This document shows positions 18,777 to 20,666 of a stretch of DNA of 32,000 bases, piece by piece. Positions within the stretch are counted from its first letter, which is position 1, and every line of letters begins with the position of its first letter. Made by a program: the position numbers and the translations under genes. The notes below the pieces were generated by a model. That model saw nothing but the letters and a program-made list of their open reading frames with translations, did no database searches and was not told the origin of the DNA. The stretch is from Candidatus Harpocratesius repetitus (GTDB lineage: Archaea; Asgardarchaeota; Lokiarchaeia; Sigyniarchaeales; Promethearchaeaceae): NCBI GenBank assembly GCA_021498095.1, contig JAIZWK010000001.1, forward strand, positions 120,001 through 152,000. The letters are read 5' to 3'.

Positions 18777-20666
18777 CTAAGGGTATAATAATTTTAACAC
18801 TTTGATTTCTCCTTTATGAAAAAGATATTCCCGCAATATTGTTATTTTTTTTCTCAAGATTTTAAATTGTTCATCATTTGCATGATTTTGAAAGGTATAT
18901 TTCCTGTAGGCATCAATCTGGTTAAAAATTCTGCATTTTGGATTGAATTGTAAAGGAATTCTTTTATTTAATATACCGTTTAAGTTCGTATAATGCTCAA
19001 TTGTAGTAGGATCATTTTTAACAAAATTCCACGTTATTTCATCATTTTTATTAAGATATAATGCAAAAACCATAAGATTTTTTGGATCCATAGCCAATAA
19101 TGGAAATATATCCGATAAAGGTTTTTTTGAAATTTCATTTGGATAGGTAATGATTAAAGATGGTTGTGATAAAGCTTCATAAGACGTTCTGATATTATTC
19201 AGAGGTTGAATTTGCCAGGATTGAAATGGATTACGCTTATTTATGATTTGGCTTTTTGTAGTATTGTCTAAATCATCATAACAAAGGCTTAATTGACTAA
19301 AACAGTCCAAAATATCAGGATCGATATAAATTGGAACAGGGAATTTTGTATTTCTGTTTTTTTGATAGAATTTCATAAAGATAATTGGCGAATATGTATG
19401 TTCATCTGTAGAAATTATAACGGTTCCACCTTGCTGCCATGTTTTTACCGATTCTTGATAAAGATTTTCCAGTTGATCTTCTAAAGAATGAATTTTTCTC
19501 TGTTCGCGAGCACCATCTAATATTGCAAAATCAATAACTTTGGGAAATTTTCTCAAAGTCTCACTGAAACTTTCAATTGGAGGGATTACATCAAGGCAAA
19601 AATCAGAGGTGTATAAAAATCTCCAATGCGAACGTTTTCGAAATTCTTTGTGAGTCTTAACGAAATTTTTTGAAAGTTGGATGCTAAATAAAGTAGAAAT
19701 CGCCCCAACCATATGCCCTGCGCTAAAAAATTGGACTTTAACATTATTTGAAATGTTTATAGAATCTCTGAATGAAACAGGATAAATTTTCTTAATGAAT
19801 TTATCTTTAAGAGATTTCTCGTGAAGAATTGCGTTTAATATAGTTAAAGCGGAATATTTTGTACAGAAGATGTATTCGATTTTTTCATAGACTTTCTTCT
19901 CTTTAAGCATCCAAACTAATCCTGCGGTGTGATCCTTATGAACATGTGAAATAATTAACCAATTAGGAGGATTTAGAAGGAGATAATTTTTTAGCTTGTT
20001 AAGTTTATTTTCTACTTCATTAATTTGGTTATTATTGGTGCTAATTGTGTTGCTCACTTTGCTTGAATCAACTTCAGTATTTTTATCAAAAAGATGGTTG
20101 GGATTAAATGTAAAACCGCAATCCATCAAAATTCTTTTTTCTTTAACTTGTAATTCAAATGCATGCATCCAAGAACAATCAACCAATAATTGAATTTGAA
20201 TATCATCTGGTGTTATATCAAGATTACTGCCGTTTTTTATCAAAGGTTGTATTTTTCTATTTTTATTTTGACTGATTTTTTCTTTTAAATGAGTTAATTT
20301 TTTGGATTTGATGTTGATGTAGTTTACTCCTGTAATATAATAGTACCATCCCGATTTCAAGCTTGCTAAGGTGGTTTTTTCCTTTAATAATATTGAATTG
20401 CCTTCAACTCGAAGAATTAGCATGTTATTATCTGGATCTTGGCTGATTTCTTTAATTTGAATTAAAAGCGAATGTGGACAAAGCAATAAAAACTCAATTA
20501 GTGCTTCTTGAGCTCTTCTGTATGGCATAATTTGGTATTTTTCAAGCAATTCTTCTATTTCAGAATATCCTTTAGGTTTATAGGCGCCATAATCGGACAT
20601 TTTTATTTTAAAAACTATTCCTTTAAACTCAACTTCAACAGTTTCATCTTTTATTTCATCGAGCAC
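18777..20666 (-). CDS. Metallo-beta-lactamase / beta-CASP family nuclease with ~160-aa N-terminal extension, 629 aa
   Basis: Motifs ILMDCG, ISHVHKDH (HxHxDH), SAGHMVGA, YTSDF, ILDGA, FQNHAND, LFHKGE; GTG start preceded by GAGGA. Confidence 0.85.
   Translation of the reverse strand: MLDEIKDETVEVEFKGIVFKIKMSDYGAYKPKGYSEIEELLEKYQIMPYRRAQEALIEFLLLCPHSLLIQIKEISQDPDNNMLILRVEGNSILLKEKTTLASLKSGWYYYITGVNYINIKSKKLTHLKEKISQNKNRKIQPLIKNGSNLDITPDDIQIQLLVDCSWMHAFELQVKEKRILMDCGFTFNPNHLFDKNTEVDSSKVSNTISTNNNQINEVENKLNKLKNYLLLNPPNWLIISHVHKDHTAGLVWMLKEKKVYEKIEYIFCTKYSALTILNAILHEKSLKDKFIKKIYPVSFRDSINISNNVKVQFFSAGHMVGAISTLFSIQLSKNFVKTHKEFRKRSHWRFLYTSDFCLDVIPPIESFSETLRKFPKVIDFAILDGAREQRKIHSLEDQLENLYQESVKTWQQGGTVIISTDEHTYSPIIFMKFYQKNRNTKFPVPIYIDPDILDCFSQLSLCYDDLDNTTKSQIINKRNPFQSWQIQPLNNIRTSYEALSQPSLIITYPNEISKKPLSDIFPLLAMDPKNLMVFALYLNKNDEITWNFVKNDPTTIEHYTNLNGILNKRIPLQFNPKCRIFNQIDAYRKYTFQNHANDEQFKILRKKITILREYLFHKGEIKVLKLLYP

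Follow-up and report, generated by a model that had tools for sequence, protein, structure and literature searches.

We analysed a window of 32,000 nucleotides (nt) from the Asgard archaeon Candidatus Harpocratesius repetitus (Promethearchaeota), whose genome is a single contig of 4.36 Mb with 31% GC and of which the window covers the 120-152 kb interval. Within a CRISPR island of this window, the minus-strand open reading frame (ORF) at 18777-20666 encodes a 629-amino-acid (aa) metallo-beta-lactamase (MBL)/beta-CASP protein, hereafter referred to as P0001. The 629-codon ORF begins with GTG, preceded at 8 nt by the sequence GAGGA, and the start codon is supported by a metagenome relative (91% DNA identity) that begins at the identical codon. 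P0001 is a strongly derived, fast-evolving paralogue of aCPSF1/FttA that is collinear with it over its whole length, and its gene lies directly beside, and divergent from, the gene for a CARF-HEPN ribonuclease (RNase) of the Csm6/Csx1 family. The gene and its immediate surroundings comprise the following features.

18777..20666, minus strand: divergent aCPSF1/FttA-like beta-CASP metallo-nuclease gene, P0001, 629 aa (ORF and translation, family model, hhalign, AlphaFold (AF2) model, Foldseek)
20217..20666, minus strand: N-terminal module, residues 1-150, predicted to hold a KH1 remnant and a KH2-like fold without GXXG (AF2 model and structural matches)
18777..20216, minus strand: MBL and beta-CASP core, residues 151-629, with intact metal site and short C-terminal tail (motif table)
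20667..20981, no strand: divergent intergenic region of 315 bp between the beta-CASP and CARF-HEPN genes (sequence)
20982..22469, plus strand: CARF1-type CARF-6H-HEPN RNase, Csm6/Csx1 family (PADLOC Csx1/Csm6 1.5e-32, TIGR02710, Csm6_6H)
17631..18100, minus strand: leader of the 53-repeat array; it lies downstream of the beta-CASP gene and runs in the same direction (repeat end, leader block)
13706..17630, minus strand: CRISPR array 2, 53 repeats of 37 nt

The best family for P0001 was aCPSF1 (TIGR03675), at 61.1 bits against an equivalog cut-off of 580.2 bits, and the Lactamase_B models remained below threshold. Because the host genome also encodes a canonical aCPSF1 (903.6 bits) and an aCPSF2-like gene (285 bits), P0001 represents a third, very divergent beta-CASP gene. 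Its descent was evident at several levels. A phmmer comparison with the sequences of the Protein Data Bank (PDB) placed it collinearly on aCPSF1 of M. mazei (2xr1; query residues 75-187 on chain residues 98-217, and 231-537 on 235-539), and alignment of the subfamily profile with a canonical aCPSF1 profile extended this over almost the entire protein (hhalign, columns 12-525 versus 29-540, probability 99.9%, E = 2.8e-31). The AF2 model, built from 33 sequences (predicted local distance difference test score 87.6, predicted template modelling score 0.89), contains the MBL fold with the beta-CASP lid and matched aCPSF1, CPSF73, TTHA0252, IntS11 and RNase J at E-values of 1e-13 to 1e-27. The eight best Foldseek matches were all KH-CPSF/FttA structures (E = 1e-22 to 1e-27, about 660 columns), followed by CPSF73, TTHA0252, IntS11, Cas14 and RNase J. 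No CARF or SAVED sensor domain was matched in P0001 by the Pfam, NCBIfam or PADLOC models, and an exhaustive homologue search over 1.84 billion representatives (31 matches) yielded no longer fused relative, the longest match being 781 aa.

The initial annotation had described the N-terminal module as unrecognised, with an OB-fold-like second half, and had seen no KH domains. The AF2 model instead predicts beta-beta-alpha followed by alpha-beta-beta-alpha-beta over residues 10-113, the latter part spanning residues 47-115. When the module was modelled alone and compared with 48,161 chains, the best match was the KH2 domain of P. horikoshii aCPSF1 (3af5_A; VIA-align, Z = 5.4, root mean square deviation 2.7 Å over 65 aa, model residues 47-115 on chain residues 78-146), followed by the KH domains of NusA, Era and RbfA and by OsmC-type domains. 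Foldseek of the module alone likewise returned FttA/aCPSF1 in its best four rows (E about 0.02), and the structural register of the isolated module agreed with the full-length alignment to the KH region of aCPSF1. Since hhalign with only the module gave no significant match to aCPSF1 (probability 2%, E = 0.023), the KH assignment rests on collinearity together with modest structural matches. No subfamily member has a GXXG loop at the KH position, where the host aCPSF1 has GKSG; KH1 is reduced to a remnant in P0001 and the KH2-like fold is kept. The module's last strand carries a family signature, SGWYYYITG, and residues G106, W107, Y109, Y110, T112 and G113 are invariant. On the model, therefore, the module is most simply read as a decayed KH pair without GXXG and not as a new domain; the OB-fold reading was rejected, and the statement that KH domains are missing holds for the GXXG loop only.

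The initial annotation had also listed a full set of MBL/beta-CASP motifs, which was confirmed except at motif A. MBL motifs 1-4 are invariant in the subfamily (D182; H241-x-H243-x-D245-H246; H318; D355), as are the histidines of beta-CASP motifs B (H595) and C (H617). At motif A, however, the canonical glutamate (RAQE in aCPSF1) aligns with isoleucine in P0001 and with I, L, F or V across the subfamily. A conserved acidic residue, D421, sits 7 residues upstream of this position and might substitute for it. The ESTYG sequence of aCPSF1 is replaced by DGA or DGS, and both this and the motif A change are common to a wider cloud of divergent paralogues. In contrast, the C-terminal end is a feature specific to the subfamily: the tail after the motif C histidine measures 12 aa in P0001 and 12-16 aa throughout the subfamily, compared with 33-39 aa in aCPSF1 and 31-56 aa over aCPSF1, aCPSF2 and the other divergent groups, so that the aCPSF1 C-terminal dimerisation motif (the last ~12-16 residues) is absent. 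The last residues of aCPSF1 form its dimer interface, and deletion of the last 12 in P. abyssi gave a monomer that retained endonuclease activity and lost 5'-3' exonuclease activity and RNA binding (PMC3553952). As this tail is missing, P0001 presumably does not dimerise in the manner of aCPSF1.

We next considered the close relatives of P0001. Word-indexed protein searches with the single protein and with an alignment recovered the query alone, and searches of metagenome, genome and viral collections for related loci added none. In the tree of matches from the exhaustive search, P0001 falls in a six-sequence clade with the G008 gene, P0003, P0005, P0004 (with P0014) and P0007 (support 100 in the Shimodaira-Hasegawa-like approximate likelihood ratio test), whose members are 31-48% identical to it. 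These represent six independent loci, counted apart from one deletion variant (L025), and most of the contigs are short.

Window locus: divergent CARF1-HEPN gene, arrays, III-B and I-B genes
G008, contig C547: CARF1-HEPN gene upstream on the same strand, overlapping the beta-CASP start by 38 nt
L009-L011 (P0005): CARF2-HEPN gene 55 nt downstream; upstream a 396-aa protein of no assigned family, and before it a protein with a faint HEPN signal
L026: array, cas6, Cas02710 protein, second array, beta-CASP gene, CARF1-HEPN gene 52 nt downstream
L012 (P0007): STAND NTPase, stand-alone HEPN protein, DCD-domain protein; no CARF gene
L006-L008 (P0003): HAD, RidA, nucleotidyltransferase, purL and PolD genes; no CARF gene

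A CARF-HEPN (Csm6/Csx1) gene was thus directly adjacent in four of the six loci, on the same strand in three. CRISPR arrays were found at two loci (the window and L026), and the other four contigs show none. With two CARF-HEPN genes in the 4.36 Mb of the host, we roughly estimate that such adjacency would arise by chance in about 0.1% of cases per locus, and because gene order and CARF class differ among the four linked loci, the association appears to have been repeatedly acquired or maintained. The distribution of the subfamily is sporadic: neither of two congeners (87% and 92% complete) yielded the P0001 gene, and the subfamily was found in one of 12 other genomes of the family (G008) and in 2 of 400 genomes of the phylum, unlike a universal single-copy gene. 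The neighbouring CARF-HEPN gene, used as a query, had no match in the 13 other genomes of the family, and among these the beta-CASP gene was matched in G008 only.

The seventh locus, L025, is a natural deletion variant of the window locus. It is 91% identical to the window and keeps the start of the CARF-HEPN gene and the intergenic region, save for a gap of ~108 bp (L025:1-1500, compared with window 20290-21435), and its beta-CASP gene stops at about codon 126, where it abuts CRISPR repeat sequence. Beyond the repeats lies a stretch 74% like window 5670-5895. Other loci showed peculiarities of their own. At L026 (L026:9363-12934) the beta-CASP gene is split into 228 and 449 aa in overlapping frames and the CARF-HEPN gene into 165 and 374 aa; the splits may stem from indels introduced in a long-read assembly, or the two genes may have decayed together. 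The L012 island (L012:1-18102) encodes a STAND NTPase (AAA_16/NACHT), a 160-aa RiboL-PSP-type HEPN protein and a DCD (development and cell death) protein, along with LRR, TPR and zinc-finger proteins, and resembles a defence island lacking cas genes. Directly upstream of P0005, the 396-aa protein (L009:483-1673) has no family match and a low-complexity centre rich in K, N and Q, and no homologue of it was found in the host genome or at the other loci.

Beyond the clade, the remaining search matches also had aCPSF1 as their best family, far below the cut-off, and sat in other contexts. Of 135 genomes of a sister Asgard family, 110 encode a paralogue of ~765 aa (L070-L077, e.g., L073:6593-8896). 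Its synteny is conserved (IscU/NifU, cysteine desulfurase, nitroreductase, P-type ATPase and TFB genes), and it gives the impression of a core, uncharacterised beta-CASP gene. Among the other distant paralogues, some neighbour a topoisomerase or a further MBL gene and some a type III restriction-modification system. Only in the small subfamily, therefore, is the gene linked to CARF-HEPN. The refutation that the initial annotation had set itself, homologues lying mostly outside CRISPR loci, is half borne out: the distant ones do lie outside them, including the IscU/IscS-associated paralogue, and the close ones divide into the four beside CARF-HEPN genes and the two without cas or CARF genes. 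Divergent paralogues matched the Cas14 model more weakly than genuine aCPSF1 proteins do, and no true Cas14 was detected among the 400 genomes of the phylum. As a separate observation, proteins of ~460 aa in other Asgard families (L060-L069, e.g., G157:C1:3199646-3200995) scored 430-480 bits on the Cas14 model, with the match confined to positions 1-435; they are free-standing relatives of the Cas14 nuclease domain without the Cas10-like C-terminal domain.

The remainder of the window island includes the following features.

7182..8996, plus strand: Cmr2/Cas10; its GGDD cyclase motif is intact, and it could plausibly supply cyclic oligoadenylate (cOA) to the CARF-HEPN partner
2868-4904: Csx1-Csx20 fusion
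5024-5437: small CRISPR array
6088-13634: cmr1-6 (III-B), with a CARF-like gene inserted among them
Window island: type I-B genes in the order cas3-cas5-cas7-cas8-cas7

The placement given in the initial annotation, between the leader of array 2 and a divergent CARF-HEPN gene and inside a III-B plus type I island, was borne out, with the leader block at 17821-18080, the CARF-HEPN gene at 20982-22469, a cmr1-6 set and a type I component now identified as I-B. The repeat of array 2 terminates in ATTGAAAT on the minus strand, and its leader block resembles G000:C1:119955-120150 and 174936-175195 (76-82% identical), so that each of three CRISPR arrays has a conserved block ~190-450 bp to its right. 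The block establishes minus-strand transcription of all three, and together with the repeat end it indicates that the array 2 leader faces the beta-CASP gene and that both are co-directional. The ~700 bp without genes that separate this leader from the 3' end of the beta-CASP gene contain a 58-bp direct repeat in two copies (18353-18410 and 18430-18485, 88% identical), and an Rfam scan of the window gave no matches. The report that no cas6 is visible was correct for the window; two candidates nevertheless occur elsewhere in the genome (G000:C1:189027-189593 and 191263-191616), ~49 kb downstream and past a 152-repeat array at 163384-174746. The CARF-HEPN neighbour carries the HEPN motif RNDIVH and is the sole CARF1 Csx1/Csm6 detected in the host genome. 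The other CARF-HEPN protein of the island has a fused Csx20 domain, and the neighbour has none. Genome-wide, the Pfam Cas02710 model gave zero matches in the host, and the PADLOC CARF-HEPN models, applied after it, detected one CARF1-HEPN and one CARF2-HEPN gene only.

We consider that P0001 is best read, tentatively and with a probability of roughly 45%, as a dedicated ancillary metallo-RNase of type III CRISPR signalling that acts alongside a cOA-activated Csm6/Csx1 enzyme. This reading starts from the aCPSF1 descent of the protein, its intact metal site, its lost GXXG loop and tail, the sporadic distribution and the repeated CARF-HEPN adjacency, and we infer from it that RNA is the substrate, that P0001 cooperates with the HEPN enzyme, and how it cleaves. 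A working pathway from cOA to HEPN is plausible because the GGDD motif of Cmr2 and the RNDIVH motif of the neighbour are present. Once a target is bound, Cmr/Cas10 would produce cOA and the adjacent CARF-HEPN enzyme would then cleave RNA; the beta-CASP enzyme, predicted to be competent and probably mainly an endonuclease, may help to destroy transcripts or their fragments. A helper RNase without a sensor of its own is favoured because P0001 has neither a sensor domain nor a fused form, and by analogy with RNase J2 and PNPase, both required for Staphylococcus type III-A immunity (PMC6447361); P0001 would supply from within the locus a help like that of housekeeping RNase J there. The general proposal of the initial annotation, a candidate accessory nuclease tied to the CRISPR context and distinct from the housekeeping enzymes, is upheld by the separate aCPSF1 and aCPSF2 genes of the host, the sporadic occurrence and the linkage in four of the six loci.

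Several observations nevertheless weigh against this interpretation. Neither a CARF nor a cas gene was found at two of the six loci (L006 and L012), and PADLOC analysis of the neighbours of P0003 and P0007 detected no CARF gene; six loci are a small sample for a claim of linkage. The partners belong to both the CARF1 and the CARF2 class, a point against a single, fixed interface between the proteins. The gene is dispensable, since L025 has lost most of it. Finally, catalysis may be altered, because the canonical motif A glutamate is replaced.

The same evidence was weighed for other roles. P0001 could be a general RNA-metabolism paralogue that resides by chance in variable defence islands and has no tie to CRISPR; the distant paralogues are indeed housekeeping-like (the ~765-aa form in 110 of 135 sister-family genomes), and P0003 lies among HAD, RidA, purL and PolD genes, but direct adjacency to CARF-HEPN genes in four of six loci, in three arrangements and with two CARF classes, and the sporadic distribution make this unlikely. 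Rather unlikely, too, is a ring nuclease or signal-turnover enzyme, which would use its MBL site to hydrolyse cyclic oligoadenylates, or the linear products of these, and so switch off the Csm6/Csx1 neighbour. Cleavage of cyclic nucleotides by MBL-fold enzymes such as Apyc1 counts in favour of this role, as does the match of the relative P0007 to the Apyc1 Pfam model, although the latter reflects generic MBL similarity. The Csx20 domain fused to the island's other CARF-HEPN protein, and lacking from the neighbour, points the same way, and sensor-less genes beside CARF effectors are typically ring nucleases (PMC12669027). However, P0001 keeps the whole beta-CASP lid and the predicted KH-like module, the structures nearest to it are all of enzymes acting on RNA or DNA polymers, and the ring nucleases of the 2025 classification are Crn1-Crn5, with an MBL fold given in its main text for the type VII effector only (PMC12669027). 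A ring-nuclease role thus fits the position of the gene but not its polymer-oriented architecture.

The gene's location in the window and in L026, next to the leader or trailer of an array, the lack of cas6 in the window and the proposal of a CRISPR-associated NYN RNase as a trimmer (PMC11346440) would all suit a nuclease for crRNA maturation or trimming at the adjacent arrays. We regard this as improbable, given that the conserved neighbour is a CARF-HEPN gene and not cas6, cmr or csm, that four of the six loci have no array on the contig, that cas6 candidates exist in the genome, and that the L025 relative lost the gene yet retains repeats. Least probable by far is that P0001 is recruited by Cascade or Cas7 as an effector like Cas14 of type VII. 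The initial annotation had entertained a Cascade-recruited effector, perhaps with Cas7b, and a beta-CASP nuclease in a CRISPR island with a second Cas7 gene would suit it. Nevertheless, P0001 scored 16.2 bits on the Cas14 model NF045584 against a cut-off of 800 bits, has no Cas10-like C-terminal domain and ends 12 aa past motif C; Cas14 structures ranked below aCPSF1, CPSF73 and TTHA0252 in Foldseek; and the subfamily does not group with Cas14-like beta-CASP proteins in the tree (three 'Cas14-like' rows on a very long branch, possibly wrong ORFs, were not relied on). The other five loci show no cas7 or cas5 linkage, the cas7 and cas5 genes of the window are I-B genes behind cas3, and nothing links P0001 to Cas7b, Cas8 or Cas5, the conserved neighbour being Csm6/Csx1 rather than Cascade. 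Both the type VII and the Cascade-effector readings were thus rejected on the Cas14 score, the fold ranking, the tree and the short C-terminal end.

A bolder reading, which we hold to be doubtful, is that CRISPR systems recruited a beta-CASP enzyme a second time, independently of Cas14. An FttA-derived enzyme without a dimer interface or RNA-binding loops of its own would rely on cOA-activated Csm6/Csx1, the two forming a heteromeric RNA-destruction machine or a termination 'torpedo' on invader transcripts, or else the enzyme would be the first MBL-fold ring nuclease. Full-text literature searches on beta-CASP or aCPSF1 proteins with CARF, CRISPR or ring nucleases yielded type VII work and general reviews, none with a CARF-HEPN-linked aCPSF1 paralogue. 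The set of ancillary enzymes on which type III defence depends is growing, and bacterial housekeeping RNase J is needed for full immunity. If P0001 acts as proposed, the cOA pathway would gain a new enzyme family, encoded beside Csm6/Csx1 in Asgard archaea, beta-CASP nucleases would have entered CRISPR systems more than once, and the HEPN RNase and metallo-RNase would offer a simple two-gene module for studying what completes or limits collateral RNA cleavage. The subfamily is also a natural experiment on aCPSF1 function without GXXG loops and the dimer tail.

We finally compared P0001 with known systems. It resembles aCPSF1/FttA (KH-CPSF; TIGR03675; PDB 3af5, 2xr1, 2ycb, 9bct) in length and in KH-MBL-beta-CASP order, with identical metal ligands and motifs B and C, and differs from it in the missing GXXG, reduced KH1, replaced motif A glutamate, ESTYG-to-DGA/S change and absent dimer tail; moreover, aCPSF1 is universal, vertically inherited and single-copy, whereas P0001 is sporadic and has a CARF-HEPN neighbour. 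The ring nucleases Crn1-Crn5 occupy the same gene position beside CARF effectors, but have other folds and are much smaller (PMC12669027). The NYN ribonuclease of the Bacteroides fragilis type III locus is also a sensor-less RNase, although of unrelated fold and with a proposed role in crRNA trimming (PMC11346440). In the type III-A system of Staphylococcus epidermidis, RNase J1/J2 and PNPase provide a case of a beta-CASP RNase aiding type III defence beside Csm6 (PMC6447361, PMC9762709); those helpers are housekeeping enzymes encoded elsewhere, in contrast to P0001, a dedicated, diverged copy beside a CARF-HEPN gene. Cas14 (type VII; NF045584; PDB 9j9e, 8z9c; PMC10910872) is likewise a beta-CASP nuclease in an archaeal CRISPR context, but P0001 has neither its Cas10-like C-terminal domain nor its cas7-cas5 operon, carries a predicted N-terminal KH-like module instead, and scores 16 bits on the Cas14 model compared with ~340 for true aCPSF1 proteins. 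P0001 looks like a recruitment independent of Cas14 and is, beyond the shared fold, unrelated to it.

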